DNA from: Parcubacteria group bacterium Greene0714_7
Lineage (GTDB): Bacteria; Patescibacteriota; Minisyncoccia; Phycocordibacterales; Phycocordibacteraceae
Assembly: GCA_007378985.1 (NCBI GenBank)
Contig: VMHB01000001.1
Location: 64,252-128,251, forward strand
Length of the DNA: 64,000 nt
Direction of reading: 5' to 3'
Shown here: positions 2,695 to 50,863 of the stretch, piece by piece
Layout of the letters: every line of letters starts with the position of its first letter
Numbering within the stretch: position 1 is the first letter of the stretch
Notes under the pieces: model-generated
The model's input: the letters and a program-made list of their open reading frames with translations, nothing else
Databases searched by the model: none
Told to the model about the DNA's origin: nothing
Position numbers and translations under genes: made by a program

Positions 2695-2705
2695 GAGAGA
2701 GGAAG

Positions 2706-2998
2706 AGGGATTCGGTAACAGATAGTTTTACTTTGTAAGATTTCTTCAATTCTTTCGAGGGTTCGGTCACAAGTAAATTTCCTGACGGAAATTTCTCGCG
2801 ACCCTAGCTCGGCATTTTTGCCTTGTGAGGCGTAAACAAAAATATGCCTGCGCTTTTCGAATCCCTCACGTGAGCCAAATTGTTAGGGATTCGGTCACGG
2901 ATAATTTTAAAAAATAAAATTTCCGCGACCCCGACTCGCCGACAAGCGATCGCTTCGCTCGCCTTGTGTACCGCCTCCGTCTTTCGAATCCCTCACCG
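2706..2998. repeat. Tandem array of about 120-bp repeat units (starts near 2706, 2757, 2885), each beginning gagggattcggtcac and ending ctttcgaatccctcac, next to tRNA-Val
   Basis: Unit ends are inverted copies of each other and copy the T-loop of the adjacent tRNA-Val (gagggattcgaa). Inside each unit: a hairpin (aaatttcctgacggaaattt) and a conserved core ttctcgcgacccNagctcggcatttttgccttgtgaggc. Related copies lie at 9397-9480, 10140-10240 (inverted), 31870-31940 and 50690-50800. Confidence 0.6.
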
Positions 2999-3050
2999 CA
3001 TTACAAACAATAAGTGCCGAACGCGAAAGCGTTCGGCATCTTTTGTTTTG

Positions 3051-3123
3051 TGCGCGGTGAGGGATTCGAACCCCCGACATCGTCAACGTCAATGACGCGC
3101 TCTACCAACTGAGCTAACCGCGC
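3051..3123 (-). tRNA. tRNA-Val (anticodon GAC)
   Basis: Reverse complement folds as a cloverleaf: acceptor GCGCGGT, D-arm GCTCAGTTGGTAGAGC, anticodon stem CGTCA/TGACG with loop TTGACGT, T-arm GGGGGTTCGAATCCCTC. No encoded CCA. Confidence 0.85.
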
Positions 3124-5605: not shown

Positions 5606-7900
5606 ATGCACACACAAACGTATAGAGTAAAAGGAATGCATTGTGCTTCGTGCTCCTCGACCATCGAGAAGACTTTTAAGAAAGTGGATGGGGTACATTC
5701 TGCGGAAGTTAATTACGGTACAGAAAAAGCAAAGATTTCTTTTGATCCCTCAAAAACCAATCCTCACGATCTTTCTAAACACATTGAGCCACTTGGATAT
5801 TCATTAGAAGTTCCAACGAGTGCAAATGAAATGGGTATGTCGGAGAGTGAACATGCAGCTCATTTAGGTTTGAATCAGTCTAAAAAAGAGAAATTAGCGG
5901 AGGTGGCTGATATGCGAACAAAAGTGCTTTCCGCCATTCCTATCGCCGTCTTCGCCGCTTTCGTCATGGGTTGGGATATTCTTGCCGAGTACAGTATCAC
6001 TCCGGCGATGAGCTATACACTCAAAGAATTTTTCCATCACTTACTCCCAATACTTGCGACCTATATTTTGTTTGTGGTTGGTACGCCATACTTACTTGGT
6101 TTTTATAGATTCTTACGCTATGGAAAGGCGAACATGGATACCCTGATTGGTATTGGTACCACCGCCGCCTTTCTATACAGCTTTGCAGTTACGGCTTTCG
6201 AGGAAACACTCAGGCCTTTTATCAATGTTGACTATCAATACTACGATGTGACCATTGTAGTTATTACCTTTATTGCACTTGGTAAATATTTGGAAGCTCG
6301 ATCGAAAATAAAGACGGGGGATGCTATCGAGAAGCTTCTCAATCTTCAAGCTAAAACCGCTTTGGTCATTCGAGATGGAAAGGAAATAGAGATCTCGGTC
6401 AACGACGTTACACATGGAGATCTAATTATCGTTAAACCTGGTGCGAAAATTCCGGTTGATGGCACTATCACAGAAGGTTCATCCTTTATTGATGAGTCGA
6501 TGGTCACGGGAGAGCCGATGCCAGTAGGGAAGAAGATCGGAGACAGCGTTGTCTCCGGAACCATAAACACAAGCGGATCATTCACGTTTAAAGCAACAAA
6601 GGTTGGGTCAGAAACATTGCTCGCCCAGATCATAACAATGGTCGAGGATGCCCAAGGGAGCAAAGCCCCTATTCAGGCACTTGCAGACAAAATTTCGTCA
6701 ATCTTTGTGCCCATTGTTCTTGTGATTGCGTTTCTTACGCTTGGTGCATGGCTCATTGTAGGGTCACAGTATTTGGGTTTCTCTCAGGCACTTTCATTTG
6801 GCCTTGTGTCGTTTGTTGGAATTCTCGTCATTGCGTGTCCGTGTGCTCTAGGACTTGCAACTCCCACAGCAATTATTGTCGGAGTCGGTAAAGGTGCAAA
6901 AGAGGGCATTCTTATCAAAGACGCCTCTACTCTTGAAAAACTTCACAAGGTGGACACGGTTATTGTGGACAAAACTGGCACTATTACTGTCGGCAAACCA
7001 ACTCTGGTTGATATTCAAAATCTCTCAAGCGTAACGGATGATGAACTGGTATCGATTCTTGCTTCGCTTGAGAAAAAATCAGAGCATCCGATTGCACGTG
7101 CGATTGTGAACTACGCTGAGGAGAAAAATATTCCTGTATCCACTATTTCAAATTTTGAAGGAATACAGGGTAAGGGTCTCAGGGGAGTAGTGAACGGCAC
7201 CGAATACTTTGTAGGTAATGCAAAACTTGTGGGCGATCTTAAGGTTTCATTTGAAGCTAGTACGCTGAACAAGTTTACTTCAGAAGGGAAGACACCCGTT
7301 ATTCTCACGACAAAAGAAAAAGTCTTAGGTTTTGTTATGGTGGCAGATGAAATAAAACCCGAATCAAAACAAGCTGTTGCCAATCTTCACAAACTGGGAG
7401 TTAAGGTGGTTATGCTTACGGGAGACGATGAAAAAGCTGCGAGATACATGGCATCGATGGTTGGCATCGATGATGTGGTTGCTCACGTGTTGCCACAAGA
7501 CAAATTGGCGAAAATAAAAGAATTGCAATCGCAAGGTCGAGTGGTTGCTATGGCGGGTGATGGCGTGAATGATGCACCAGCACTTGCCCAAGCAGATGTG
7601 GGCATCGCCATGGGCACGGGTACTGATGTAGCAATAGAGTCAGCGGGCATTACGCTTCTTGGCGGTGATATTTCAAAACTGGTGAAAGCCATTAGGCTTT
7701 CCAAGATCACCATGCGGGGGATCAAACAGAATCTCTTTTGGGCCTTCATCTACAACATTATCGGTATTCCTCTTGCTGCGGGAGTCTTATACCCAGTCTT
7801 CGGATGGCTCTTAAATCCAGTGTTTGCAGGATTTGCTATGGCGATGTCGTCGGTGTCGGTAGTGTCGAATTCATTACGAATCAAAGGTAAAAAATTATAA
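5606..7900 (+). CDS. copA: Copper-translocating P1B-type ATPase
   Basis: N-terminal HMA domain (GMHCASC), CPC transmembrane metal site, DKTGT phosphorylation motif, GDGVNDAP hinge. Confidence 0.9.
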
Positions 7901-9339: not shown

Positions 9340-9483
9340 CGATAAAACGGCAACAATAGTGGTGGTGAGAATCGTTTTGTGACTTAAGTGGGAATCGGTC
9401 ACAGATGTTTCAGATATTTTTCTGACAGAAATGGGAAAGGGAAATGGGGACAGTCACGATTTTCTCGATAAAAATATTCAGTG

Positions 9484-9625: not shown

Positions 9626-9910
9626 TTATTCTAATGTTCTGCAGAATTTGAGAACGTTTTTCCCCCGCTCGGTGAGTGCATGTCGCACCGAGGCACCTTC
9701 GTGGCGCTTCATGAGGAGCCCAGCGATAGAAAGTTTCCGCAGATGTTCTGAAAGCGTGCGGTAATCCGCAGAGAGGTGTTCGGCAAGTTCCATGACTGAA
9801 AGTTCAGAGTGTTTTTCCAGAGTATCCATTATTTGAATGCGCCAGTGACTTCCAGCTCCTTTCAGTATTCGTTCAAGATCTTGATATCGCTTCTTATCCA
9901 TTGGGTACAT
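9626..9910 (-). CDS. ArsR/SmtB-family metalloregulatory transcriptional repressor
   Basis: Winged-HTH MELAEHLSADYRTLSEHLRKLSIAGLL; 94 aa. Confidence 0.7.
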   Translation of the reverse strand: MYPMDKKRYQDLERILKGAGSHWRIQIMDTLEKHSELSVMELAEHLSADYRTLSEHLRKLSIAGLLMKRHEGASVRHALTERGKNVLKFCRTLE

Positions 9911-9948
9911 AATACCATAGTTCTGCAGAACTATGGTATTATGTACCC
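9903..9948. promoter_or_regulatory. 46-bp perfect palindrome gggtacataataccatagttctgcagaactatggtattatgtaccc spanning the arsR start codon
   Basis: The left half reverse-complements exactly to the right half; the arsR ATG (9910-9908) and the first codon lie inside the left arm. A partial copy gttctgcagaa recurs at 9636-9647. Confidence 0.6.
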
Positions 9949-9981
9949 ACAGAAAGAAAAATCGGCTATACTAGCGCGTAC

Positions 9982-10053: not shown

Positions 10054-10088
10054 TGATTACAAAAAAGCCTGCAACGCAGGCACTTTTT

Positions 10089-10440
10089 GTTCATGACCCC
10101 AAGCACGAGAATAATTTCTCGTGCGTCCGGGAATCGAATGGCACAGGCATATTTTTGTTTGTGCCTCACAAGGCAAAAATGCCGAGCCGGGGTCGCGAGA
10201 AATTTCTGTCAGGAAATTTACTTGTGACCGGTTTCCCGGTGGGGTCACAAAGTCAAAAACATGCCGACTGCTCGGCATTTTTTACTTTGTGACAGCCGGA
10301 GCCATGTCGCTTGCGACGGGCGAGGCGGGGTCGAGCGCACTTAGTATTTTGTGAGCCTTCGGAGCAAAATACTTAGTGACGGGTGACCACAAAGAAAAAA
10401 CACGCTAGTGAGCCGTGATCGATTCCCGGTGGGGTTCGAA
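10089..10440. repeat. Composite non-coding region downstream of tRNA-Glu: inverted copies of the tRNA 3' end (10091-10102, 10125-10136), an inverted about 100-bp repeat unit (10140-10240), direct copies of the tRNA 3' end (10210-10228, 10412-10430) and a conserved hairpin element (10285-10395)
   Basis: The string cgattcccggtggggt of tRNA-Glu recurs twice downstream. 10190-10232 is the reverse complement of 2761-2800. 10293-10395 matches 32345-32450 almost base for base. Confidence 0.6.
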
Positions 10441-11911: not shown

Positions 11912-11955
11912 CCTGTATAGTATAATTTAACGACCGTTAGATTATACTATACAGG
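11912..11955. promoter_or_regulatory. Palindrome B, copy 1: cctgtatagtataat-ttaacgaccgttag-attatactatacagg
   Basis: 15-bp perfect inverted arms that each contain a TATAAT-like hexamer; related copies at 46059-46100 and 51107-51148. Confidence 0.5.
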
Positions 11956-12009
11956 ATGGAGAGTAATTCTAAAGATTTTAGGAGAGGAATGGTTTACCAA
12001 GGTCGGACC

Positions 12010-12045
12010 TTTGTATTTTAAGATACCCCTAATTCGCACGAATTA
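12010..12045. promoter_or_regulatory. Palindrome A, copy 1: aagatacccctaattcgcacgaattaggggtatctt
   Basis: 17-bp perfect arms; the outer half-sites ATACCCC/GGGGTAT match the CsoR-operator half-sites at 5297-5314. A second copy lies at 45981-46014. Confidence 0.5.
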
Positions 12046-12105
12046 GGGGTATCTTAATTAAAAATTATTTAGGTATCGTGATGTGGCATGAATCAGTGGT
12101 ATATG

Positions 12106-14515: not shown

Positions 14516-14651
14516 ATAAAGAAAGGGGTTAGCTTCTAGGTGCTAGGTTCTAGCTTTCTGAAAATTGAAAAGCTAGCACCTAGTTCCTAGTACCTAAAAC
14601 CTATCCCAGAGTTTACCTCGTGAGCTGAAAAAATAAAAGAAATCGAAGAAC
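14516..14651. repeat. Heptamer-periodic imperfect hairpin element between trxB and the pfkB-kinase start
   Basis: Reverse complement reads ...ctaggaactaggtgctagcttttcaattttcagaaagctagaacctagcacctagaagctaacccc...ATG; homologous to 21236-21336. Confidence 0.55.
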
Positions 14652-18565: not shown

Positions 18566-18576
18566 TGTAATAGGGG

Positions 18577-18610
18577 ATAGGCGACGCTTCGTCGGATCCG
18601 AAGGGATCAT
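18577..18610. promoter_or_regulatory. Conserved two-hairpin motif, copy 1 (ataggcgacgcttcgtcggatccgaagggatcat) in the ftsA leader
   Basis: Near-identical copies at 50161-50195 and 59728-59759. Hairpins are cgacg-ctt-cgtcg and gatcc-gaag-ggatc. Confidence 0.55.
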
Positions 18611-21235: not shown

Positions 21236-21336
21236 ACTTGTTGAAGGTTCTAGGTGCTAGGGACTAGGTGTTAGCTTTTAATTTTCAGAAAGCTAGAAGC
21301 TAGAAGCTAGAAGCTAGAAGCTAGCACCTAATCTCA
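21236..21336. repeat. Heptamer-periodic hairpin element ending in (GCTAGAA)x4 immediately before the pth start codon
   Basis: ggttctaggtgctagggactaggtgttagc-ttttaattttcagaa-agctagaagctagaagctagaagctagaagctagcacctaatctca|ATG. The left arm reverse-complements to the right-arm repeats. Confidence 0.6.
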
Positions 21337-29673: not shown

Positions 29674-29744
29674 GAATTAGGGTATATAGTGTTTAGGCGA
29701 TGCCTCATTGGATCCGTAGGGATCATAAGAAAACAAAAAACAAT

Positions 29745-30571: not shown

Positions 30572-30925
30572 ATGAAAAAAATAATCGGAATGACTTTTAT
30601 TGGCGCAACGGCACTCGTACCAGTTTCAACATTTGCAGCTGCAAGTACCATTCAGGATGTGCTCCGTAACCTTAACCTTCCACTTCAGCTCGCAACAACG
30701 CTTGTAGTAATGCTCGCACTTCTCCTCTTCTTTTGGGGTTTAGCTATGTATGTTTTTGGCTCATCTAATGATGAAAAGCGGAAAAAGGGTATACCTATGA
30801 TGATTTGGGGCGTTGTTGCTCTATTCGTGATGCTCTCTATCTTCGGTATCATTAATATGCTTCAGGCTACCTTTGGGGTTGGTTCTGGAACCCTCCAAAT
30901 CCCAACCATTAGTAGAGGGCAATAG
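30572..30925 (+). CDS. T4SS-pilin-like small membrane protein, paralog 3
   Basis: Signal peptide (…FAAAS); TM1-FGSSNDEKRKKGI-TM2 core nearly identical to paralog 4. Confidence 0.55.
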   Translation: MKKIIGMTFIGATALVPVSTFAAASTIQDVLRNLNLPLQLATTLVVMLALLLFFWGLAMYVFGSSNDEKRKKGIPMMIWGVVALFVMLSIFGIINMLQATFGVGSGTLQIPTISRGQ

Positions 30926-31046: not shown

Positions 31047-31421
31047 ATGAAAGGATTTTTAAGAACTGGTATTGCCACTGTCGTCGCTCTTGCTCCATTT
31101 GCTGCATTTGCTGCAGGCGGTGTTGATAACGCACTTACAAAAATTGGTGCTTTGATTACACAAGCAACACCAATTGTCGTTGCTCTTGCTCTTCTTGCCT
31201 TCTTCTGGGGTTTGGTTACCTACATCTTCGGTTCTTCAAATGATGAAAAACGAAAGAAAGGTATCCACATAATGGTATGGGGCATTATCGCTCTCTTCGT
31301 CATGCTCTCTGTCTTCGGTATCATCAATGCTCTTCAGAGCACATTAGGTGTTGAAAATACAACGACAATTCAGATTCCACAGGTGACTCCAGGTACTAAT
31401 GGAGGAGGAACTGCTCGTTAG
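31047..31421 (+). CDS. T4SS-pilin-like small membrane protein, paralog 4
   Basis: Signal peptide (…FAAFAAGG); the same FGSSNDEKRKKGIHIMVWG core. Confidence 0.55.
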   Translation: MKGFLRTGIATVVALAPFAAFAAGGVDNALTKIGALITQATPIVVALALLAFFWGLVTYIFGSSNDEKRKKGIHIMVWGIIALFVMLSVFGIINALQSTLGVENTTTIQIPQVTPGTNGGGTAR

Positions 31422-31497
31422 GATTTTCCAAGTCTTGAATAACCACAAGAATTAAGAAGTTGTTTGGTTCATTTAAGTCTTTTGTATTGATTAGTTA

Positions 31498-31700
31498 TGG
31501 ATGTACTGTCTAAATTCATTGGTAAGATTGTTGAGTTGATACTCAACGGTATTCATTGCACATGCAGATAATCCTGAGGAAAGAAAAAAAGGAGAACGAA
31601 AGATGCTTTGGGGGATCATTGGATTCTTCATCATGGTATCTGTTATAGGCATCCTGACTGCGGTTACGGGAACCTTCGGGGTTAGTTTACCGAGGTAATT
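31498..31700 (+). pseudogene. Decayed fragments of a fifth pilin-like paralog
   Basis: A short N-terminal ORF (MDVLSKFIGKIVELILNGIHCTCR*) followed, out of frame, by EERKKGERKMLWGIIGFFIMVSVIGIL..., matching the loop and TM2 of the paralogs. Confidence 0.5.
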
Positions 31701-31724
31701 AATACAAAAAAAGAGATTAATAAA

Positions 31725-31755
31725 ACACTCCGCGAATAGCGGAGTGTTTTATATT
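31725..31755. terminator. Intrinsic terminator (aaaacactccgcgaatagcggagtgtttta)
   Basis: 9-bp stem with flanking A-tract and T-tract. Confidence 0.6.
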
Positions 31756-31789
31756 TGAAGTGTGTAGAGAGATGTAGGGTGACTTGGTC

Positions 31790-31986
31790 ACGAGTCACTA
31801 ACTATTTTGCTTCGCTCGCTCGCAAAATACTAAGTGCTCTCGAAGCCTCTCGGCACGATTTGCTAATCGCCCAGCTCGGCAATTTTGCCTTATGCTTCGC
31901 ATAAACAAAATTATGCCTCCGCCTTTCAAGTCCTCACGCACGTAAAGCAGTTTGCGTGCTTTCCGCCTACACTCGTAAACTCATTG
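31790..31986. repeat. Non-coding repeat modules downstream of tRNA-Leu(TAG): an inverted partial copy of the conserved hairpin element (31790-31870) and a repeat-unit core whose end copies the local T-arm (agctcggcaattttgcc...ccgcctttcaagtcctcacgc)
   Basis: 31874-31940 aligns with 2807-2877, except that the terminal T-loop mimic is ttcaagtcctc (Leu-TAG T-arm) instead of ttcgaatccctc (Val T-arm). Confidence 0.55.
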
Positions 31987-32068
31987 TGGGCGGAAGAGGA
32001 CTTGAACCTCCACCCCTTGCGGGACCAGCTCCTAAGGCTGGCGCGTCTGCCAATTTCGCCATCCGCCC
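31987..32068 (-). tRNA. tRNA-Leu (anticodon TAG)
   Basis: Reverse complement: acceptor GGGCGGA/TCCGCCC, anticodon stem-loop CCAGC-CTTAGGA-GCTGG, long variable arm, T-arm GGAGGTTCAAGTCCTCT. Confidence 0.75.
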
Positions 32069-32153
32069 AATGCTTGAAGAGTAGCATTAGACGCCTGCTA
32101 TTCAAAGATTCATGCTTTTAAAATGTACTTATTTCTGTTAGAGTTTCTCAATC

Positions 32154-32227
32154 TGCCCGAAAGCTATGCTTACGGGTGGAAATAAAAAAGAGAAGAAACA
32201 TTCGCCCGTAAGCATAGCTTTCGGGCG
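32154..32227. repeat. Perfect 21-22-bp inverted repeat (gcccgaaagctatgcttacggg ... cccgtaagcatagctttcgggc) with a 28-nt A-rich loop
   Basis: Read directly; no flanking T-tract, and it lies inside a gene-free region. A second 11-bp hairpin follows at 32239-32264. Confidence 0.5.
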
Positions 32228-32274
32228 CTTCGCTCCAAGATAGTGAAAACAAATTTTCACTATCCTTCTCGCTC

Positions 32275-32327
32275 GCGCCCGTAGCTCAGTTGGTAGAGCG
32301 ACTCCCTCTTAAGGAGACGGTCGCAGG
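32275..32327 (+). pseudogene. tRNA-Lys-like 5' fragment (acceptor, D-arm, anticodon arm CTT, 5' T-stem) with no matching 3' half
   Basis: GCGCCCG-TA-GCTCAGTTGGTAGAGC-G-ACTCC-CTCTTAA-GGAGA-CGGTC-GCAGG, followed at once by the conserved hairpin element. No TTCGAAT-CCTGC-CGGGCGC found downstream. Confidence 0.5.
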
Positions 32328-32334
32328 ATTTTCT

Positions 32335-32580
32335 TGTTTTGTGCGTGCCGGAGCCATGTCGCTTTGCGACGGCGAGGCGGGGTCGAGAGCACTTAGTATT
32401 TTCTGAGTCTTACGAGAATAATACTTAGTGAATCGTGACCACAAAAAATAAAAAAGCACTACGCAAGTAGTGTTTTTTGCTTGTGTGCGTGCCGGAACGA
32501 TGTCCTGAGTCTCGAAGGACCGTGAGGCGGGGCCAGCGACCGAGACGAGCGACGGCGAGTCGAGAGTCGTGGCCACAAAT
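32335..32580. ncRNA. Two tandem copies (one complete, one variant) of a conserved about 100-nt hairpin element (gccggagccatgtcgcttgcgacgg-cgaggcggggtcgag-gcacttagtatttt...aaaatacttagtga-gtgaccacaaa)
   Basis: 32345-32450 matches 10293-10395 with substitutions confined to the loop of the long cacttagtatttt/aaaatacttagtg stem. 32480-32570 shares the ends and has a different central hairpin. Calling it an RNA is inference. Confidence 0.4.
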
Positions 32581-32682
32581 TCTCCTTATTTGAGGAACTG
32601 CGAGCCGAGCGATTAGAGAATCGTGCCGAAGCCCTACCGAGCCCAGAGGGATCAATTATGGATGCTAGTATTTTAGTTACCT

Positions 32683-33216
32683 ATGGTCCTTCTTCATAAT
32701 TTCTGGTTCATTCAATTCCTTGGTGCGATAGCTCTCGTTTTTGTAGTGCTCGCATGGAATGCAAAAACTCGTAGAAATATACTCTTTTTACAATCTATCA
32801 ATTTAATTTTCTTTATTTTTCACTACGCACTTCTTTCTGCATATGCAGGTGCTGCAATGTGTTTAGTGGTTCTAGGGCGAAATAGTGTTTTTATTCAAGC
32901 AAATCAGAAAAAATGGGCAAAACATCCTGTCTGGTTTTACCTCTTCTCATTGATGTCAGTGGCAGTGCTTGTCGTTTTTTGGAAAGGATTGATTACTATT
33001 TTGCCTGTTGTAGGAGTTATTATCGGCACCTACGCTATCTCAAGAGATCATCCTAAAGATATTAGATTCTACATGCTCATTGCATGTGTCATTTGGATTC
33101 CGTACACCATTGTTGTTCAGTCATATTCAGGACTCTTGAGTCAGATAGTTGGCGCTGTAGCTATTCTTATGGGGATGTATCGACACGACCGAAAGAAAGA
33201 ACCCATCCCGTTATGA
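32683..33216 (+). CDS. YgjV-like inner membrane protein (5-6 TM helices)
   Basis: Hydrophobicity pattern and length. The family assignment is tentative. Confidence 0.4.
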   Translation: MVLLHNFWFIQFLGAIALVFVVLAWNAKTRRNILFLQSINLIFFIFHYALLSAYAGAAMCLVVLGRNSVFIQANQKKWAKHPVWFYLFSLMSVAVLVVFWKGLITILPVVGVIIGTYAISRDHPKDIRFYMLIACVIWIPYTIVVQSYSGLLSQIVGAVAILMGMYRHDRKKEPIPL

Positions 33217-33254
33217 GTATAAGACTTTAAAAAATTACGGCGCTGTTGTAGAGT

Positions 33255-33809
33255 TTAAAACTCATACACATACAGTGTGTGTTTGTGTCTGCCCGCAACA
33301 ACTACAGTTTCAATTGGTTCTTTTGTTTTGAAAGGGAAGTCACAGGAAATAACTCGGGTTCCTTTTTTTAATTCTGCTTCGAACTTTGGCAAAAGTTTTT
33401 CCACGACTTCAGGAAATAAATACATGTATATATGTGTTGCGTTGCTCAGTGGTACGCGTGAGAAGTTTTTGAAAAGAGTTTTTACATTTTTCAATGGTTT
33501 TCTCCAGAAACGAATTTGGGTGAGTGTGTAGGGAAGTGGGGCTTTTTCGACGCCTGTTGCAAACGCATCTGGATAGGCTGAACCAATGGTAGCAATAACA
33601 CGCCCGTCACCAGAGCCGAGATCGTAAAATTGATCGCCTGCCTTCATTGCCAGTAATCGCTTTACTTCATCAATTACATGCTGAGGTATTGGCACATAGG
33701 GTACTTTAGTTGTGACGATGCCGTAGCTCATCAACAGTAAAAAAAAGAAGCACACTAGCCAGATAAGTATTAGTAATACATAAAGGGCTAGAACAAGGAA
33801 AAGAGTCAT
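33255..33809 (-). CDS. Membrane-anchored class I SAM-dependent methyltransferase
   Basis: N-terminal TM helix, then motif I FYDLGSGDGRVI. The longer ORF (to 34070) would translate the tRNA trailer repeats, so the start was placed at MTLFLVLALYVL. Confidence 0.55.
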   Translation of the reverse strand: MTLFLVLALYVLLILIWLVCFFFLLLMSYGIVTTKVPYVPIPQHVIDEVKRLLAMKAGDQFYDLGSGDGRVIATIGSAYPDAFATGVEKAPLPYTLTQIRFWRKPLKNVKTLFKNFSRVPLSNATHIYMYLFPEVVEKLLPKFEAELKKGTRVISCDFPFKTKEPIETVVVAGRHKHTLYVYEF

Positions 33810-33939
33810 ATGTGCGAAGTAGTATATCGTATCTTTTTTGCCTGCACTGAGTGAGTAAATCGAGTCGAGGTGTGCTGGGGGAGGGACTCCACTCCGGTCG
33901 CTCGTTGACTCTCGCGCCTCCGTGCCGGCCCTCGCGGTT

Positions 33940-34076
33940 TTTGCCTTGTCTCTTGCAGACTCAAGACAAACAAAAACATCGCTCCGGACTTCGAGTCCCA
34001 CACGCAAGCGTCGCAGGGCGCTTGCTCCTGGGCACCATAAAATAAAGTCGCACGGATGCGCGACTAACATTTTTTA
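33940..34076. repeat. tRNA-Leu(TAA) trailer: an inverted copy of the T-arm (ggacttcgagtcccacac) and a 16-bp inverted repeat that pairs with the tRNA 3' end (cctgggcaccataaaa / ttttatggtgcccagg) enclosing a small hairpin
   Basis: Read directly. Confidence 0.55.
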
Positions 34077-34162
34077 TGGTGCCCAGGGTGGGACTCGAAC
34101 CCACATTCCTTACGGAACTCGATCTTAAGTCGAGCGTGTCTACCAATTTCACCACCCGGGCG
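34077..34162 (-). tRNA. tRNA-Leu (anticodon TAA), CCA encoded
   Basis: Reverse complement: acceptor GCCCGGG/CCTGGGC, anticodon stem-loop CTCGA-CTTAAGA-TCGAG, long variable arm, T-arm GGGTTCGAGTCCCAC, then ACCA. Confidence 0.8.
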
Positions 34163-34288
34163 GGTGTTACTTGATTATGATACAGGATTAAGGAATTAAG
34201 GGGAATTGCCCTCTCACGGTTTTTTGAAACAAAAAACATCGTTCCGGCTTTCGATTCCCGACGTAAAGCATGCAGATGCTTTACTCCA

Positions 34289-34364
34289 TGGAGGCCACGG
34301 CGGGAATCGAACCCGCGCAATATCGGTTTTGCAAACCGCTGCGTTTCCACTTCGCCACGTGGCC
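34289..34364 (-). tRNA. tRNA-Cys (anticodon GCA), CCA encoded
   Basis: Reverse complement: acceptor GGCCACG/CGTGGCC, anticodon loop with GCA, T-arm GCGGGTTCGATTCCCGC, then TCCA. Confidence 0.75.
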
Positions 34365-34379
34365 TGTCTGAGTACAATA

Positions 34380-34706
34380 CTATGTCACTCCGTTTCCCTC
34401 AACGCTCTCACCCATGTCAGGGTCGGGAAGGAAAGTTACTCGAGGCACGGTGTGGAGTCGTGCCTGTGTTTTTAAGAAAACGAGAAATTCTTGGCGTTGA
34501 CGTGATAAGAAATCTGCCACTGCATGCGTTTGTTCTTTCGGTAATACGCTCACAAAGATTTGTGCAGTTTTTCCACCATCAGTAATATGTACTTTTGTGA
34601 CGGTAATAAGTGAACGACGATTTGATTCACGGTTAATGAACTGTGCGGCCGCGGCACTTAGTGCTGATATGAAGCGTTCGTCTCTATGAATTTGATCTCG
34701 TGGCAT
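34380..34706 (-). CDS. rbfA: Ribosome-binding factor A
   Basis: About 108-aa KH-like protein (…ITVTKVHITDGGKTAQIFVSV…) immediately downstream of infB. Confidence 0.75.
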   Translation of the reverse strand: MPRDQIHRDERFISALSAAAAQFINRESNRRSLITVTKVHITDGGKTAQIFVSVLPKEQTHAVADFLSRQRQEFLVFLKTQARLHTVPRVTFLPDPDMGESVEGNGVT

Positions 34707-34712
34707 GGAGGA

Positions 34713-36239
34713 TTATGTTTTCTTGAACAGTGCACTCACGGTGTCACCTGCAACAATGTCTGCCTTGGATTCAATTTGTGCCCCGAATTCCATTCCTTCG
34801 GTGATTTCACCAACATCAGCACGCTGTGTTTGGAGGTTTACCACTTTTCCCGTTCCTACTTCAATGCCACGACGGTGTATCAGCACCTGATCTTTGAGGT
34901 GGATGATTCCTGTGAGCACTTTTCCTCCTACGACATGTTTTGCGCCAGAGCTTGAAAAATGTTTAATGATTTGAGCGGTACCAGAAATTGCACCTTCTTC
35001 CATTTCTGGTTTGAATTTTTTTATTTCTTCTTTAAGCCAATCACCAAGTTCGTAAATGATGGCACGCGTTTCAATGGTGATGCGCTGTCTTTCGGCAAGG
35101 TCTTTTGCCGAAGCGTCTGCCTTTACATTGAAACCAAGAACAATAGCAGGGGAGAAACCAATGAATGGTCTGATGTCGTTATCAGAAATTGGACCAACAG
35201 TGCCAGAGACAATGTGCAATTCAATTCCTTCTTCTGAAATTTTTGCGAGTTCGTGTTCAAGCGCCTCAAGTGAGCCGGCGGTATCTGCTTTTAGCGCTAG
35301 TCGCACGAGTGTGCGCTTGCCACCACCCTCTATTGCGCTACCGCGTGGTTTCGCTTGAGTGGGCTGTCGTACTTCATCAGTGAGTTTCTCAGCTTCTTTT
35401 TTAGTTTTGACTATTGAAAGAATACTTCCAACTTTTGGTTCAGAGTCAAAACCGGTTATGCGTGCAGGTTTACCACAAGAAATTTCTGTAACCTTTGCTC
35501 CTGTAAAATCTTCTAGTGTACGAAGTGGTGCCATGGCGCTTCCTATTACAGCAAAACCACCAATAGTTATTGTTCCTGAGCGGACAATTACAGTCGCACT
35601 TATTCCCGCTTTTGGATCACGAGCAGATTCTATAACGATTCCTTCTACTTCTTTTGTTGCATCGCAGGTGATGGAGTGTAGGTCAGCGGTGAGTCCAATG
35701 AGGTCAAGTAACTCTGATACGCCAGCACCTGTTTTCCCAGAGACTCCCACAAAGGATATATCGCCACCCAAGCCTTCAAGGTAAATGCCGTTTTTCATCA
35801 CGCTTTCTTTTGCGCGGTCTAAAGAGGCAGTGTCTTTGTCAATTTTTGTGAAGGCGACAATAAAAGGAATACCTGCTTCAAGTATTGCTTTATGTGCTTC
35901 CAAAGTCTGTGGCTTTACACCGTCATCAGCCGCAACAATAAGAATTGCGATGTCAGCAGCAGCGCCAGCTCGGGCTCGCATTTTTTGAAAAGCTTCATGT
36001 CCTGGGGTGTCGATGAAGGTGATATGTCTTTCTCCTTCAGCTCCTGTATGAGTGACCTCATATGCTGATACACGCTGAGTGATACCGCCTGTTTCCTTTG
36101 CGGCGACTGCAGATTTTCGTATGTAGTCTAGAAGTGTTGTCTTGCCATGGTCAATATGCCCGACAATTGCGACAACTGGTTGGTGACATTCTTTAGGATT
36201 GGCTGATCGTGGACTTGTCATAGTGCAAGAGAAACACAA
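34713..36239 (-). CDS. infB: Translation initiation factor IF-2 (short form lacking the N-terminal domain)
   Basis: G-domain VVAIVGHIDHGKTTLLD, DTPGHEAF, NKID; 508 aa. Confidence 0.9.
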   Translation of the reverse strand: MCFSCTMTSPRSANPKECHQPVVAIVGHIDHGKTTLLDYIRKSAVAAKETGGITQRVSAYEVTHTGAEGERHITFIDTPGHEAFQKMRARAGAAADIAILIVAADDGVKPQTLEAHKAILEAGIPFIVAFTKIDKDTASLDRAKESVMKNGIYLEGLGGDISFVGVSGKTGAGVSELLDLIGLTADLHSITCDATKEVEGIVIESARDPKAGISATVIVRSGTITIGGFAVIGSAMAPLRTLEDFTGAKVTEISCGKPARITGFDSEPKVGSILSIVKTKKEAEKLTDEVRQPTQAKPRGSAIEGGGKRTLVRLALKADTAGSLEALEHELAKISEEGIELHIVSGTVGPISDNDIRPFIGFSPAIVLGFNVKADASAKDLAERQRITIETRAIIYELGDWLKEEIKKFKPEMEEGAISGTAQIIKHFSSSGAKHVVGGKVLTGIIHLKDQVLIHRRGIEVGTGKVVNLQTQRADVGEITEGMEFGAQIESKADIVAGDTVSALFKKT

Positions 36240-36275
36240 AAACGCTTCTTAAGCAAATAGCATGCGAGCTGTATC

Positions 36276-36785
36276 TTAGGCTTTTTCTGACGAGAGTGTC
36301 TTTTTTGCGTCAGAAATCGCACCACGTTCTTCTTCAGATAATTCGCGCTCTGACAGAAATTTTTTCACTGCCTTTGCATACACACGCACGCCATCTCTTG
36401 CATGAATACCAGAAAGTACCGCACCGTCTCCTTTTTCATCAAGTAATGCAACGATGAAACTTTGCTGTCCACCTTCTCCGCCAAATGGATCGAAGCGCCT
36501 CATCGCGATCCCGCGAATGCAGGTTTCTAGTCGTGCATCAACATTGTTAAACGCCACGGTCGATTTTGTGGCATGTTCTTCTAATGTACTTGCGCGTTCT
36601 TGTAGTTTTCGAATAGTACCTTCAAGTGTTTTTCCATCTCCACCCCGCACGAGCCGTCGTAATCTTCGGAAGAGAAATAGGTCTTGAATGAGGGCCCACG
36701 CCACGAGAATAGTAAGTCCAGAAAGCACGGGGTTCCCTTGCACGGACTCAAGAACATTTTGAAGTACGATGTGAGCAGTTTCCAT
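36276..36785 (-). CDS. Hypothetical membrane-anchored protein (DUF4446-like)
   Basis: N-terminal TM, a coiled-coil stretch, and C-terminal RFDPFGGEGGQQSF...VRVYAKAVKKF block. Family assignment from memory, low certainty. Confidence 0.35.
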   Translation of the reverse strand: METAHIVLQNVLESVQGNPVLSGLTILVAWALIQDLFLFRRLRRLVRGGDGKTLEGTIRKLQERASTLEEHATKSTVAFNNVDARLETCIRGIAMRRFDPFGGEGGQQSFIVALLDEKGDGAVLSGIHARDGVRVYAKAVKKFLSERELSEEERGAISDAKKTLSSEKA

Positions 36786-36842
36786 GAGTATTAGAAGAGT
36801 ATAGCGTATGTTTTGTGTTGCAATCGCTGTATTATAGGAAGT

Positions 36843-38060
36843 ATGTCTTCCATAAATAATCGCATTTATCTTGATAACGCGTCTGCTACGCCAGTGCATC
36901 CTAAAGTGGCCAGAGCCGTCTACGGTGCTTTAGAAGATGTTCCGGGAAATCCAAGTGCACCTCATGCCGAGGGGCGAAAAGCCTATGAGGCTATTGAGCG
37001 CGCACGATCTGATATTGCTCAAACACTCGGAGTTAAGTCAGAGGAGCTCATTTTCACATCAGGTGGCACTGAATCAAACAACCTCGCTATTTTTGGTGTC
37101 ATTGATGCGTTACATAAAAAAGGTATCGCGTATGCTGACATGCACATTGTCACGACATCAGTTGAGCACAGTTCTATTTTAAAAACTCTCGAGATTTTGG
37201 AAAGCAGAGGTGTAGAAGTTTCGTATGTTGTTCCTGACTTCGATGGGATTGTTCGTGCGGAGTTAATTGCGAGTGCGATACAGCCTAAAACAGCACTTGT
37301 GACTCTGGCGCATGTGAATAGCGAGACGGGCGTCATTCAACCATTAGCCGATATCAGTACTGAAATAACAAGATGGAAGGGGAGGGAGGTCAGTACCTTT
37401 AGACAATTAGTTCCTGAAGTATCGTTTCCAATTTTTCATGTTGATGCTGCTCAATCGCCTTTATATAGTGAAGCGAGCCCACATGCATTTCGAGCGGATA
37501 TGGTTTCGTATGATGCGCAAAAACTGTGCGGACCGAAAGGCGTTGGTGTTTTGTATCGCGATTTTTCTGTCCCAATGGTTCCTATGTGGGGCGGAGGAAC
37601 CCAAGAGCGAGGTATTCGACCAGGGACTGAGAATGTTGCTGGAATAGTTGGTGCTGGCGTAGCGTTTGTCCTTGCTAAAGAAGAGAGGGCGACAAGGGAA
37701 GTGCGTGTACGAGAATTGCGTGATTATTTAATTGAGTTAGTGCGGGATGTTGCACCTGACGCTGAACTTATTGGACACCCAAAACGACGCATTGCTTCAA
37801 ATGCACTCTTTGCGATTTCTGGTATTGACGGTGACTACCTCTCGGTATTAATGGATGAAGCCAATGTTGCAGTATCACCACGGAGTGCCTGCGTAGGTAC
37901 AGGGGGAAATATATCGCATGTGGTGATGGCACTTACTGGCGACGAAAAGAAAGCAAAAGGCACTATTCGTTTTTCACTTGGAGTTGATACAACTAGACTT
38001 GATATTGAACGAGCCGTCACGGCCTTCAAAGGTGCCCTGAAAGTAGCGAGGGCTATGTAA
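36843..38060 (+). CDS. iscS: Cysteine desulfurase (class V aminotransferase, IscS/NifS family)
   Basis: PLP-Lys region SYDAQKLCGPKGVGVLY and active-site Cys loop (PRSACVGTGG). Confidence 0.85.
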   Translation: MSSINNRIYLDNASATPVHPKVARAVYGALEDVPGNPSAPHAEGRKAYEAIERARSDIAQTLGVKSEELIFTSGGTESNNLAIFGVIDALHKKGIAYADMHIVTTSVEHSSILKTLEILESRGVEVSYVVPDFDGIVRAELIASAIQPKTALVTLAHVNSETGVIQPLADISTEITRWKGREVSTFRQLVPEVSFPIFHVDAAQSPLYSEASPHAFRADMVSYDAQKLCGPKGVGVLYRDFSVPMVPMWGGGTQERGIRPGTENVAGIVGAGVAFVLAKEERATREVRVRELRDYLIELVRDVAPDAELIGHPKRRIASNALFAISGIDGDYLSVLMDEANVAVSPRSACVGTGGNISHVVMALTGDEKKAKGTIRFSLGVDTTRLDIERAVTAFKGALKVARAM

Positions 38061-38064
38061 GTGA

Positions 38065-38127
38065 TGCACATTATTCTCTTGCTGTTTACCCCTAAACCCT
38101 ATACCCTAAACACTAACCCCTTCCCAT
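38065..38127. repeat. Heptamer-repeat leader ccctaaa ccctata ccctaaa cactaac ccc abutting the ATG at 38128
   Basis: Read directly; same family as the leaders of serS, relA and the hisS-like gene. Confidence 0.5.
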
Positions 38128-41907: not shown

Positions 41908-42125
41908 TGGGTTGGATTCGAACCGCGGGCCGCAACGACTGGGAAGGAGTGAAGGTCTCGAGCTCAGCAGAGCGAGAGGCGAATCCAACCCGAGGATCGC
42001 TAAAATTTCCGTCAGGAGATTTATCTGTGTCCGCACAATCGAAGAGCGACCATAGGTTTCGAGCGTAAGACACTTTGTCTCCCTTTGAGGGTCAAACGCG
42101 AGAGGCGAATCCAATCCGCCAACAC
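41908..42125. repeat. tRNA-Tyr trailer with three partial copies of its T-arm (ggttggattcgaacc; gaggcgaatccaacccgagg; gaggcgaatccaatccgcc)
   Basis: Read directly. Confidence 0.5.
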
Positions 42126-43225: not shown

Positions 43226-43466
43226 CAGTTTTGAAACGCAGTGAAAAACTGCGGTACCAAGAAAAGCACTTATGTGCTTTTCGACAAGGATTCGAAGACC
43301 CTGAATATATCGCACGGAGCCTGTCTTCAGGCGAGTACGATATGAAGGGTGTACAGCTCCTGTAAAGAGACTTTTCAGAAACTGCATTCGGACGAAACGA
43401 AAACTATGTTTTCGTTTCGCTTCTCTCTGGTTTCTGTAAGGAGAGAATCCTTGTGGGCCCGCAAAA
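43226..43466. repeat. tRNA-Trp trailer: two hairpins, an inverted T-arm copy (caaggattcgaagaccc, about 43286-43302) and a 19-nt direct repeat of the tRNA 3' end (aatccttgtgggcccgca, 43447-43464)
   Basis: Read directly. The direct repeat at about 220 bp resembles a tRNA-targeting att remnant, but there is no cargo gene between the copies. Confidence 0.55.
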
Positions 43467-45878: not shown

Positions 45879-45980
45879 CGATTACAATCCTAACATTTCC
45901 ATACACTGACAGTCTTGGCTTTGTAATTCGTAAAGAGCGCACAATTACCCCGCGTTCCTACTTTCTCCTATTCTATTTTC

Positions 45981-46014: not shown

Positions 46015-46058
46015 GAAAATACAGAGGTCGGATCTTTGTATTTTTACTTCACTTCCAT

Positions 46059-50146: not shown

Positions 50147-50160
50147 TGAGTGTTTTGGTG

Positions 50161-50674: not shown

Positions 50675-50863
50675 TTGCAAGTGCCGGAGGAGGGACTCGG
50701 TCAGGCGTTCTCTGTTTGTCGTCACAAACAGAGCCGCACGACCCTAGCTCACCTGTTTTTTCTGCTGAAAAAACATGGTTCCGCTTTTCGAGTCCCAACG
50801 TAATGTACGCAGGTGCATTACTCCTCGCGCAAAAGAAAATCGCACACATGTGCGATTACTTTG
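50675..50863. repeat. tRNA-Leu(CAA) trailer: a direct copy of the tRNA 3' end (gtgccggaggagggactcg, 50680-50698) starting a repeat unit, and an inverted T-arm copy (gcttttcgagtcccaacg, 50783-50800)
   Basis: Read directly. The unit core ccgcacgaccctagctc matches the cgcgacccNagctc core of the 2706-2998 units. Confidence 0.55.

Follow-up and report, generated by a model that had tools for sequence, protein, structure and literature searches.

Cassettes with a predicted three-way-junction fold follow tRNA genes in a Patescibacteria bacterium and carry copies of the neighbouring tRNA 3' end

We analyzed a 64,000-nt stretch of the genome of Parcubacteria group bacterium Greene0714_7 (contig VMHB01000001.1, positions 64,252 to 128,251; hereafter, the window), which is about 98% identical to a Candidatus Paceibacterota genome assembled from a metagenome (a MAG). 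ARAGORN identified nine tRNA genes in this region, at the places given in a preliminary description of the sequence. Almost every one of them is followed by a small cassette which, read in tRNA sense, consists of a hairpin or spacer, X', a core, and X. X' is the reverse complement of tRNA positions 54-74, and is often split between its acceptor part and its T-stem part by a small conserved hairpin, hp0. The core is about 100 nt and has two hairpin arms, hp1 and hp2, while X is a direct copy of positions 56-74. The repeating block is X, hairpin, X' and core. The features are listed below (T1, terminator-like hairpin; CM, covariance model score).

3050..3123, minus strand: tRNA-Val(GAC) (Rfam tRNA, 68.9 bits), whose positions 54-74 (TTCGAATCCCTCACCGCGCAC) are the source of the copies downstream.
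3000..3049, no strand: T1, a bidirectional terminator-like hairpin (stem 3014-3039), the centre of a 42-nt-arm palindrome that joins the tRNA 3' half to X'.
2983..2999, minus strand: X' of unit Val-1, a 17/17 reverse complement of tRNA-Val positions 54-70.
2871..2994, minus strand: unit Val-1, a three-way-junction core (2894-2982) with its own hp2 variant, closed by X' and the X copy at 2885-2893 (CM 60.5 bits).
2743..2867, minus strand: unit Val-2 (A type), with X' 2856-2869 (14/14), core 2766-2855 and a decayed X 2757-2765 (CM 120.7 bits; 91-94% identical to the Glu unit).
2705..2756, minus strand: a rudimentary third unit (2715-2756) ending in another X copy, cgaatccctc (2705-2714), 11 nt after the stop codon of the convergent ABC-transporter gene.
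9359..9404, minus strand: tRNA-Ser(CGA) trailer, with a decayed hp2 end (gtgac) followed by an X of a different tRNA (cgattcccac), then a decayed copy of Ser's own X (cgattctcaccaccac).
10054..10251, plus strand: tRNA-Glu cassette 1, with T1 10054-10093, X' acceptor part 10094-10101, hp0 10102-10126, X' T-part 10127-10138, A-type core 10139-10228 and X 10229-10247 (CM 123.2 bits).
10248..10435, plus strand: tRNA-Glu cassette 2, with a terminator-like hairpin 10248-10291, B-type core 10294-10388 and third X copy 10420-10435 (CM 31-35.7 bits; 84% identical to 32330-32452).
31774..31970, minus strand: tRNA-Leu(TAG) cassette, with X' acceptor part 31961-31970, hp0 31936-31960, X' T-part 31925-31935, core 31787-31924 (B-type hp2) and decayed X 31774-31786 (CM 53.5 bits).
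32275..32327, plus strand: tRNA-Lys(CTT) truncated exactly at the T-loop (Rfam tRNA, 33.9 bits); the gene is intact in L007, the 98%-identical relative.
32334..32642, plus strand: two B-type units (32334-32462 and 32478-32596; CM 39.8 and 29.1 bits) separated by a terminator-like hairpin, then a decayed X of tRNA-Lys (32627-32642).
33868..34076, minus strand: tRNA-Leu(TAA) cassette, with T1 34038-34076, X' acceptor part including tgg (complement of the encoded CCA) 34027-34037, hp0 34002-34026, X' T-part 33990-34001, core 33890-33989 and decayed X 33872-33889 (CM 47.5 bits).
34186..34288, minus strand: truncated tRNA-Cys cassette, with tgga, hp0 34261-34284, X' T-part 34250-34260 and half a core 34209-34249 (CM 24 bits); L007 has one extra complete A-type unit here.
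41908..42120, plus strand: tRNA-Tyr trailer, with X' 41908-41922 directly after CCA, a diverged unit 41934-42056 (CM 20.2 bits) and X-like copies 41980-41992 and 42106-42120.
43261..43462, plus strand: tRNA-Trp cassette with an unrelated core (43297-43445) but the same plan, with hairpin 43261-43282, X' T-part 43283-43296 (12/12) and X 43446-43462 (17/18); it is predicted to fold as a closing helix plus two arms.
50677..50862, minus strand: tRNA-Leu(CAA) cassette, with T1 50831-50862, decayed X' acceptor part 50823-50830, hp0 50798-50822, X' T-part 50787-50797, core 50700-50786 and a perfect X 50681-50699 (18/18) (CM 52.1 bits).

The preliminary description had reported partial copies of the tRNA's own 3' end, direct or inverted, after eight of the nine tRNAs, with copies of an about 120-bp unit between them. 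This observation is real, and wider than was reported. The direct copy after tRNA-Trp, aatccttgtgggcccgc, lies 218 nt after the tRNA (17/18 match), that of Leu-CAA lies 164 nt after the tRNA (18/18), and Glu has two direct copies (10229-10247 and 10420-10435). The inverted 12-nt T-part matches at 12/12 for Val, Glu, Leu-TAA, Tyr and Trp, at 11/12 for Leu-TAG and Cys, and at 10/12 for Leu-CAA. In contrast, the same queries against the trailers of other tRNAs, or against the tRNA's own upstream flank, average 10.7/18 (direct) and 8.4/12 or 8.1/12 (inverted). The unit of roughly 120 nt is also real: the inner 87-102 nt of the Val and Glu units are 91-94% identical, while their ends differ and match Val or Glu respectively, and the Leu-TAG unit ends in that tRNA's T-arm sequence. 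Three corrections were required. First, Cys also carries a unit, although truncated (34186-34261). Second, Ser is the weakest case, since it has only a decayed hp2/X remnant whose X belongs to a different tRNA, plus a decayed copy of its own X. Third, a tenth locus exists, the truncated tRNA-Lys(CTT) followed by two units.

Genome-wide enrichment at tRNA genes, and ends that track the adjacent tRNA, had been named in advance as the points on which a link to tRNAs would stand or fall. Within the window, we ran a covariance model (R1) with filters off, which found 11 units of at least 20 bits in the 64 kb. All of them lie just 3' of tRNA genes, or of the one truncated tRNA, and in tRNA orientation, whereas hits elsewhere score 19 bits or less. 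Next, we searched for an exact 29-nt piece of the core, which occurs in 40 further loci from Patescibacteria assemblies and environmental metagenome contigs. The exact 29-mer gave only 19 genome hits, but these are spread over Paceibacterota, Moranbacteria, Saccharibacteria and Nomurabacteria MAGs; the element spans several Patescibacteria lineages. It lies beside tRNAs of 13 amino-acid types (Met, Arg, Gln, Leu, Cys, Gly, Val, Ser, Phe, Glu, Tyr, His and Lys), with the arms again matching the neighbour. Of the units that have a tRNA nearby, 36 of 36 share its orientation, and the first unit starts 19-80 nt after the tRNA end. Of 49 tRNAs, 30 carry a detectable unit, 19 have at least 15/18 identity in the direct copy (13 are perfect), and 22 have at least 11/12 in the inverted T-part. 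The modal start of the inverted copy is exactly T54, and the copies end at N73+C74, which is the edge of the tRNA.

We then examined the structure of the units. RNAalifold gives a three-way junction with two hairpin arms, whose closing helix pairs X' with X. On 37 units, 94.6% of cells are paired, against 33-50% when the partners are slid, 36 of 40 pairs show changes on both sides, and one G·U pair is invariant in 34 of 34 units. However, the alignment used for these counts was fitted to the model, and a mutational process that creates inverted duplications would produce paired stems at birth, so part of this covariation may not reflect selection. Pairing works only on the tRNA-sense strand: G·U outnumbers A·C 112 to 14, and the antisense strand scores about 16 bits against about 130 bits for the sense strand. 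The fold has conserved bulges and GAAA or UUCG apical loops. In addition, the minimum-free-energy fold of tRNA plus unit pairs the tRNA's 3' half with X', and two competing folds are predicted.

A comparison between strains, which had been put forward as a further test, showed that the units turn over quickly between close relatives. Between the 98%-identical genomes there is one extra unit at Cys, the hp2 module is swapped at Leu-TAG, and the terminator, X' and core are swapped at Leu-TAA, together with CCA in the tRNA and tgg in X', while tRNA-Lys is truncated in the window. Among the other loci (numbered with the prefix L), L040 has an exact 166-nt tandem repeat of X, T1, X' and core, and L005 has one more unit than L012 at the same site. 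The units of L008 (tRNA-Gly) and L011 (tRNA-Val) are identical over the run from TCGAA to CGA, about 100 nt, but their arms differ and match Gly and Val; the identity ends inside the T-loop. Chimeras were also found. In L023, a pseudo-tRNA-Ser is fused at its T-loop to a cassette carrying foreign arms, an arrangement that appears in three contigs from different samples, and a foreign X sits at the window's Ser locus. Orthologous units in genomes whose coding flank is only 69% identical keep the fold, and their hp0 and hp1 stems differ on both sides while the AACUGCUU loop is conserved. Alignment of L028 with the window's Ser and Glu loci was too distant to be informative.

We next asked whether the cassettes belong to a described family, and found none that matches. 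A search of Rfam 15 (including self-cleaving ribozymes, tmRNA, Y RNA and retron ncRNA) with the window and 37 loci returned only tRNAs and, in related loci, group I introns at the gathering score, and nothing credible appeared over the Glu units at E up to 10. Literature searches on tRNA and CPR repeats, MITEs and T-loops, RNA motifs in Parcubacteria and tRNA-like downstream elements yielded nothing that describes this element. The TIGR-Tas system, which these searches brought up, is unrelated: TIGR arrays yield 36-nt RNAs with box C/D motifs, whereas here there is no regular CRISPR- or TIGR-type repeat-spacer array and the units are tied to tRNAs. Hammerhead, k-turn and box C/D motifs, looked for by eye, were not found. 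Scans of viral contigs with the A-type and B-type hp2 motifs gave 0 hits. As the preliminary description had stated, no recombinase or cargo gene lies in or directly beside the units, where the neighbouring genes are housekeeping genes.

Several known systems nevertheless share some of these features. Bacterial intergenic structured repeats (REP/BIME, Correia/MITE-like elements, RUP, ERIC) are likewise small, gene-less, hairpin-rich, mosaic repeats that occur in many copies per genome, show concerted evolution and are often transcribed as parts of neighbouring transcripts. However, those families have constant ends (terminal inverted repeats, or the GTAG motif) and scattered insertion sites, whereas here the arms differ at every locus and copy the neighbouring gene, and location and orientation are tied to tRNA 3' ends. 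Terminal inverted repeats common to all copies, as in a MITE (miniature inverted-repeat transposable element), are absent, since only the T-loop bases TCGA are shared. CGA is repeated at both core ends, but it is part of the conserved T-loop, and no transposase gene was seen among the flanking genes checked in the window (whole genomes were not searched), which leaves undecided whether there is a short target-site duplication and a related autonomous IS element. REP/BIME elements with a RAYT transposase (the REP-associated enzyme) are 20-40-nt imperfect palindromes with a conserved 5' GTAG, dispersed between genes, whereas the units are 100-250 nt, have no GTAG motif and occur only after tRNAs; no RAYT or other transposase partner is known. 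Quasipalindrome template-switch mutagenesis and fold-back inverted duplication could explain exact reverse-complement copies centred on a hairpin, palindromes that run on into trailer bases (CCA/tgg), and correction of arms towards the selected copy. It is a general mutational process and not an element, and it does not explain the conserved covarying core or its spread across lineages.

The preliminary description had offered two readings, a small non-autonomous element that recombines with tRNA 3' ends and a structured trailer that can pair with the tRNA 3' end. This interpretation is partly supported: the evidence favors parts of both readings, and the data do not choose between them. Our preferred explanation, which we hold tentatively, is a family of structured, recombining cassettes that live in the 3' trailers of tRNA genes of Patescibacteria (CPR); whether they are selfish or serve tRNA maturation is open. 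The analysis itself establishes the plan of the cassette, the pairing of X' and X, so that the whole is a perfect-duplex minihelix of the cognate tRNA with the core sitting where the T-loop would be, the restriction of the fold to the tRNA-sense strand, and the position of cassettes between tRNA genes with no terminator-like hairpin before them in several lineages (L005, L012 and L014). The remainder of the model is inference. We hypothesize that the cassette is co-transcribed with the tRNA, at least by read-through, and that it is a semi-selfish repeat and not a classical transposon. Arrays would grow and shrink by slippage or unequal exchange between the X repeats. Cores and modules would be exchanged between loci and between genomes by gene conversion or template switching, anchored by the universally conserved T-loop bases (T54-A58) at both core ends. 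The tRNA-specific arms would be templated locally, X' by fold-back copying across the hairpin that follows the tRNA, and X by re-entry at the T-loop or by tandem duplication, and would afterwards be kept like the tRNA by local conversion. Finally, selection would keep the fold because a free X' is antisense to the tRNA's 3' half, and pairing with X and a compact core neutralises it.

The association with tRNAs, the locally matched arms, the fold, the exchange at the T-loop, the turnover, the chimeras, the continuity of the palindrome through the hairpin and the antisense potential all support this model. In contrast, no expression data exist, and in the window a terminator-like hairpin lies between the tRNA and the unit, so transcription would need read-through. 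The fold-back and template-switch steps are inferred from the end products, as no intermediate or clean empty site was found. The retention of the fold at 69% coding identity fits a host function as well as, or better than, a selfish repeat, and near-saturation of tRNAs in a streamlined genome also argues for function.

The next possibility, which is doubtful but not far behind, is that the cassette is a host cis-acting RNA, a cognate tRNA minihelix mimic that forms a functional part of tRNA transcription units, with the repeat-like dynamics being secondary. It would define or protect tRNA 3' ends, for example as an entry site for RNase P or RNase Z, as with plant mitochondrial t-elements or mascRNA of MALAT1, or it would act as a folding or quality-control switch in which X' captures the tRNA 3' half and X releases it. 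The strand-specific covarying fold, its retention between orthologs, the occupation of nearly every tRNA in the window, the cassettes without preceding terminator-like hairpins, the end of the copies at the tRNA edge, the two competing predicted folds, and the use of the same plan by an unrelated core at Trp are consistent with this. As in t-elements, an acceptor-like stem is stacked on a T-like stem, because X'/X pairing reproduces the acceptor and T-stem 3' strands of the cognate tRNA, and this may be how the cassette works; cleavage by either enzyme was not assayed. Those mimics, however, keep a T-loop and an unpaired discriminator and do not copy a neighbouring tRNA, whereas here the T-loop is interrupted by the core of about 100 nt, and the discriminator and C74 are paired, unlike in real RNase P or RNase Z substrates. 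Processing signals have no known need for identity to the upstream tRNA. Moreover, 19 of the 49 tRNAs lack a detectable unit, many copies are truncated or decayed, copy number and module type differ between 98%-identical genomes, units destroy tRNA copies, and terminator-like hairpins precede the units in the window.

We consider it unlikely that the folded single strand (X'/X helix plus core) is a structure-specific recombination site that mimics the duplex tRNA gene segment, on which an unidentified recombinase encoded elsewhere would act to move T-loop-to-T-loop cassettes. The inverted-repeat plan recalls folded att sites such as integron attC and the forked-hairpin attP of CTX phage, in which two inverted copies of a target-like sequence separated by about 100 nt fold into a duplex mimic of the target. 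Likewise, structure is conserved more than sequence, the fold is strand-specific, cassette borders lie at the T-loop on both sides, and tRNA copies are interrupted exactly at the T-loop. However, no recombinase is known, none is encoded beside the units, whole genomes were not profiled for one, and strand-specific recombination was not examined. Cassette borders are not fixed, since chimeras of different kinds occur, the units are not cassette boundaries of genes, no circular junction or empty site was seen, and the arms would have to be re-programmed for each tRNA, which no known recombinase system does.

Scars of classical integrase-mediated integration, with attL/attR repeats left after deletion of the integrated elements, are very unlikely and already largely refuted. 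The direct repeats, a short distance downstream of an intact tRNA gene, do run from the T-loop to the tRNA end, the identity block typical of integrases that cross over in the T-loop (Williams 2002 and Reiter 1989, as cited in PMC9897764). However, the material between them is 100-250 nt of conserved covarying fold with no gene, one core serves tRNAs of 13 amino-acid types, an inverted copy accompanies the direct one, no integrase gene is nearby, and identity between copies ends inside the T-loop pentanucleotide on both sides and not at an att core. Chance similarity or an assembly artefact is refuted, even though conserved T-loops make short matches between tRNAs and hairpins expected (controls of 8-9/12), by perfect 18-nt local matches in 13 tRNAs, CM E-values down to 1e-48, the same architecture in more than 40 independent assemblies from different projects, and the recurrence of the chimeric arrangement in three contigs from different samples.

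A more far-reaching reading, compatible with the data but in our view less likely than not, is that Patescibacteria possess an undescribed RNA system in which most tRNA genes are followed by a cognate shadow RNA, a minihelix of the same tRNA carrying a conserved three-way-junction core. It would either take part in tRNA maturation, quality control or charging through strand exchange between the tRNA 3' half, X' and X, or be a new kind of mobile element whose ends are programmed from the target by templated copying at the T-loop. CPR bacteria have tiny, streamlined genomes, and by our extrapolation more than 1% of the genome would go to these cassettes if the density in the window holds genome-wide. 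The cassettes link three things not normally linked: a conserved RNA-type fold, repeat-like dynamics, and arms copied from the neighbouring essential gene. If functional, they point to an unknown step in tRNA biogenesis in a very large part of the bacterial domain. If selfish, they are a new way for an element to acquire target-matched ends without a known enzyme, and would also be a source of tRNA gene decay, as seen for tRNA-Lys here and the pseudo-tRNA-Ser in L023. They also explain tRNA-fragment calls and contig breaks near tRNAs in CPR MAGs, and covariance model R1 provides a sensitive marker for CPR DNA.

Finally, we tested and rejected several other origins for the copies. A cDNA copy of a mature tRNA, in the manner of a primer-binding site, was ruled out because the complement of CCA is present only where the gene itself encodes CCA, and because the copies run past A58 to T54. 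X' is not a copy of the tRNA's 5' strands, since its loop part is the reverse complement of the T-loop and it pairs perfectly where the tRNA has G·U. The order of parts does not fit an inverted tRNA pseudogene. A T-loop intron in the interrupted tRNA-Lys and tRNA-Ser copies was rejected because the downstream X copies no longer pair with the 5' halves. Strand choice tied to replication direction was also rejected, as units follow tRNA orientation on both strands although GC skew is positive along the whole window.

We first identified the tRNA genes of the window with ARAGORN, which finds nine. One of them, tRNA-Tyr (41822-41907), is called by ARAGORN but does not reach the Rfam tRNA gathering score in the whole-window scan. 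We then read each trailer in tRNA orientation and observed that the same plan recurs. After the tRNA comes a terminator-like hairpin, T1, which is bidirectional at Val and Glu. This is followed by X', the reverse complement of the tRNA's own 3' part, which begins with the complement of C74/N73 and ends exactly with the complement of T54 (modal boundary). In many copies, a hairpin of roughly 25 nt, hp0, is inserted in X' between the acceptor part and the T-stem part. It has the form agc-stem-loop-stem-gcgt, and its loop is often AACUGCUU or CUGC. X' is followed by a core of about 90-140 nt, and the core by X, a direct copy of the tRNA from C56 to N73+C74. In the window, and also in related loci L002-L018, most tRNA genes encode the discriminator plus one C (C74) followed by an A-rich trailer, not CCA, and the downstream direct copies end at this same N73+C74 edge. 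In the interval on which the preliminary description focused, the layout is as follows:

3050-3123, minus strand, tRNA-Val
3000-3049, T1
2983-2999, X' (17/17)
then unit Val-1
2856-2869, a second X' (14/14)
then unit Val-2
then a rudimentary third unit, ending at 2705

X' is a true inverted copy and not the tRNA's own 5' strands, as its loop part is the reverse complement of the T-loop (for example AATCGAA for TTCGATT) and it also pairs perfectly where the tRNA has G·U. In addition, the complement of CCA is present only where the gene encodes CCA (Leu-TAA). Thus, the template was the gene or the precursor, not the mature tRNA.

To test whether these copies exceed chance, we took 49 tRNAs (those of the window plus 19 related loci) and searched, for each, the 18-nt segment 56-73 and the reverse complement of the 12-nt T-part in its own 450-nt trailer. 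As controls, we searched the trailers of other tRNAs and the tRNA's own upstream flank.

Table. Matches of tRNA 3' segments in their own trailers and in control sequences.
Query; own trailer; controls (mean)
Direct 18-nt copy; at least 15/18 in 19 tRNAs, perfect in 13; 10.7/18
Inverted 12-nt T-part; at least 11/12 in 22 tRNAs; 8.4/12 (other trailers), 8.1/12 (own upstream)

In the window, the direct copy scores 18/18 for Leu-CAA, 17/18 for Trp and 16/18 for Glu, while the inverted T-part is 12/12 for Val, Glu, Leu-TAA, Tyr and Trp. We also built a covariance model of the unit (R1) and ran it with filters off. It gave 11 hits of at least 20 bits in the 64 kb, all of them in tRNA trailers, while everything else scored 19 bits or less.

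Next, we analyzed where else the cassette occurs. The window's GyrA protein is encoded on a 292-kb ENA metagenome contig, and window positions 31193-39003 are 91-99% identical (mostly 98-99%) to a contig of Candidatus Paceibacterota isolate Gw_Eff_bin_311, hereafter L007. We scanned 185,579 species genomes for an exact 29-nt piece of the A-type core (hp2), which gave 19 loci. The genome collection was scanned only with this exact 29-mer, and the survey is therefore biased towards one core variant. All 19 loci are in MAGs, most labelled Paceibacterota, Parcubacteria, Moranbacteria, Saccharibacteria, Nomurabacteria or 'Patescibacteria group'. Two, L003 and L012, are labelled 'uncultured Bdellovibrionales'. 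However, they carry the CPR-type cassettes, and their tRNA-plus-unit and flanking regions are 69-90% identical to Moranbacteria loci, so we suspect that they are mislabelled. L012 also has a group I intron in a tRNA cluster. Group I catalytic introns (RF00028, 57-64 bits) lie inside tRNA gene clusters of related CPR MAGs, next to the cassettes (L005, another of these loci, 6813-7058 and 7570-7777; L012, 4161-4404), and probably sit in tRNA genes that ARAGORN does not call. The metagenome collection gave 21 more loci, and the viral collection gave none.

Adjacency to tRNA genes, and agreement of the ends with the neighbouring tRNA, had been proposed in the preliminary description as the properties on which a tRNA-targeting interpretation would stand or fall, and both were examined in these loci. 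In 17 of the 19 genome loci, the motif lies about 100-350 nt downstream of a tRNA on the same strand (usually about 100-170 nt, further in two-unit arrays). Of the two exceptions, one follows a tRNA fragment and one has no tRNA. The tRNAs are of many kinds: across all units that the model finds, they are Met, Arg, Gln, Leu, Cys, Gly, Val, Ser, Phe, Glu, Tyr, His and Lys, and the arms match the local tRNA in each case. Over all the sequence examined, 36 of 36 units with a tRNA nearby are co-oriented with it, and the first unit starts 19-80 nt after the tRNA end. Thirty of the 49 tRNAs carry a model-detectable unit. Others, such as the window's Trp, carry the same arms around an unrelated core that is again predicted to fold as a closing helix with two arms.

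To examine the structure, we applied RNAalifold to 20 A-type units, which gave a three-way junction. In this fold, P1 is the closing helix formed by X' and X; P2 is a 3-bp helix whose pairs vary between GC, AU, UA and CG; P3 (hp1) has an invariant U·G pair; and P4 (hp2, GGUCGCGAGAAAUUUCC-GUCA-GGAAAUUUaCUUGUGACC) has two conserved G·U pairs and stacks directly on P1. The T-loop bases supply the junction, with GAA on the 5' side and C56 as the closing pair of P4. On 37 units of several core types, 94.6% of cells are standard pairs, against 33-50% when the partners are slid, and 36 of 40 pairs show changes on both sides. Two caveats apply here: the 37-unit alignment was fitted to the model, and a process that creates inverted duplications makes paired stems at birth. 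One G·U pair is invariant in 34 of 34 units, and apical loops include GAAA and UUCG.

G·U pairs outnumber A·C pairs 112 to 14, or 90 to 5 in the core, and the reverse strand scores about 16 bits where the sense strand scores about 130. Thus, the fold exists only on the tRNA-sense strand. This is what a co-transcribed RNA would look like, although there are no expression data and a single-stranded DNA form of the same strand is not excluded. Units follow tRNA orientation on both DNA strands although GC skew is positive all along the window, which ties the polarity to the tRNA and not to replication.

We then compared close relatives, a comparison that had been suggested beforehand to look for presence/absence polymorphism. 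Between the window and L007, whose flanks are about 98% identical, four differences were observed. L007 has one extra complete A-type unit at tRNA-Cys, bounded by a 13-nt repeat of X'. At Leu-TAG, the hp2 module differs while hp1 is identical. At Leu-TAA, the terminator, the X' acceptor part and the core are all different; the window's tRNA encodes CCA and its X' has tgg, while L007 has neither. Finally, tRNA-Lys(CTT) is intact in L007, whereas in the window (32275-32327) it is a pseudogene, cut at the T-loop and followed by two B-type units. This genome may therefore rely on another tRNA-Lys to read AAG.

In other comparisons, L005 has one more unit than L012 at the same Leu-Val spacer. A further locus, L040, has three units after tRNA-Tyr, of which the first two form an exact 166-nt tandem repeat of [X + T1 + X' + core], while the third has an X' with TTCGAA where the present tRNA has TTCAAA. 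The units of L008 (at tRNA-Gly) and L011 (at tRNA-Val), which come from different genomes, are identical over the run from TCGAA to CGA, about 100 nt; beyond position 58 of the T-loop, the arms differ and match Gly and Val. The window's two A-type units share a variant of the hp1 apex that their relatives lack, indicating exchange within the genome. In L023, L035 and L037 (three contigs, two of them named as different samples), a pseudo-tRNA-Ser is fused at its T-loop to a cassette whose arms are complementary to each other but foreign; the X of tRNA-Ser follows, and then an intact tRNA-Ser. The window's Ser trailer holds a decayed unit with a foreign X. In contrast, other evidence points the opposite way. 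L003 and the locus L010 share the arrangement Arg(GCG)-unit-Arg(CCG), and their coding flank is only 69% identical, yet tRNA plus unit are 85% identical, and the hp0 and hp1 stems differ on both sides while the loop AACUGCUU is kept.

We also predicted the folding of the tRNA together with its first unit. The predicted minimum-free-energy fold pairs the tRNA's own 3' half with X', forming a long hairpin with T1 at its tip and hp0 as a branch, while the tRNA's 5' acceptor strand pairs with the downstream X. Consequently, and as a prediction only, two states can compete: one in which the cloverleaf forms and X' pairs with X, and another in which the tRNA 3' half is captured by X'.

Taken with less than even confidence, our preferred hypothesis is that this is a structured repeat cassette that lives in tRNA trailers and is transcribed with them at least by read-through. 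In this model, arrays expand and contract by slippage or unequal exchange between X repeats, as shown by L040 and by the unit presence/absence bounded by repeats, and cores and modules move between loci and genomes by conversion or template switching anchored on the universal T-loop bases, as shown by identity ending at T54-A58 and by the chimeras. The mechanism steps are inferred from end products. The tRNA-specific arms would be templated locally, with X' arising by fold-back across the hairpin that follows the tRNA, and X by re-entry at the T-loop or by duplication; this is inferred from palindromes that run on through trailer bases and through CCA/tgg. The fold would be kept because an unpaired X' would be antisense to an essential tRNA, which is likewise inferred.

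The main rival, which we consider somewhat less likely, is that the cassette is a host RNA module for tRNA 3'-end formation or folding control. It is favoured by conservation between distant orthologues, by the saturation of tRNAs, and by cassettes lying inside terminator-free tRNA clusters. A structure-specific recombination site for an unknown recombinase is possible but improbable; protein co-occurrence across whole genomes was not analyzed. Integrase scars and artefact are essentially excluded.

We next compared the cassette with known families. The direct repeats resemble att duplications at tRNA genes (PMC9897764, which cites Williams 2002 and Reiter 1989), but the inserts lack the defining integrase and cargo, and the one-element-one-tRNA rule does not hold. 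The units also lack the constant terminal repeats of MITEs and the GTAG palindromes of REP elements. No Rfam family matches, and the TIGR arrays of CPR are unrelated. In our literature searches, which covered open-access full texts only, we found no description of a repeat whose closing helix is copied from the neighbouring tRNA. tRNA-like processing elements share the acceptor/T-stem mimicry but keep a T-loop and an unpaired discriminator, which these units lack.

The window also contains repeats other than the cassettes. A 33-36-nt motif, TAGGCGAYGCYTCRTYGGATCCGWAGGGATCAT, occurs four times on the plus strand (18575-18610, 29687-29731, 50160-50195 and 59720-59764). Three copies lie just upstream of a plus-strand ORF start or between plus-strand genes, while the copy at 18575-18610 overlaps the listed start of a minus-strand ORF. 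The motif may be a leader or regulatory RNA motif, and no Rfam family matches it. A separate palindromic repeat family (ctgtatagtataatttaacgaNcgtta...tatactatacag), unrelated to tRNA ends, was found at 11912-11960, 46053-46100 and 51101-51150, and at two sites it is paired with a second palindrome (tacccctaattcgcacgaattaggggta), at 12018-12057 and 45974-46021. A perfect 48-nt palindrome (9902-9949) lies 33 nt upstream of tRNA-Glu, between the divergent tRNA-Ser and tRNA-Glu genes. An inverted pair of 'ctag'-rich repeats (14530-14602 and 21245-21316), 73 nt long and 89% identical, lies in two intergenic regions 6.7 kb apart. Finally, two adjacent ORFs next to the Leu-TAG locus (30572-30925 and 31047-31421) share a 74%-identical stretch, and the second (31047-31421) matches a type IV secretion pilin Pfam domain.
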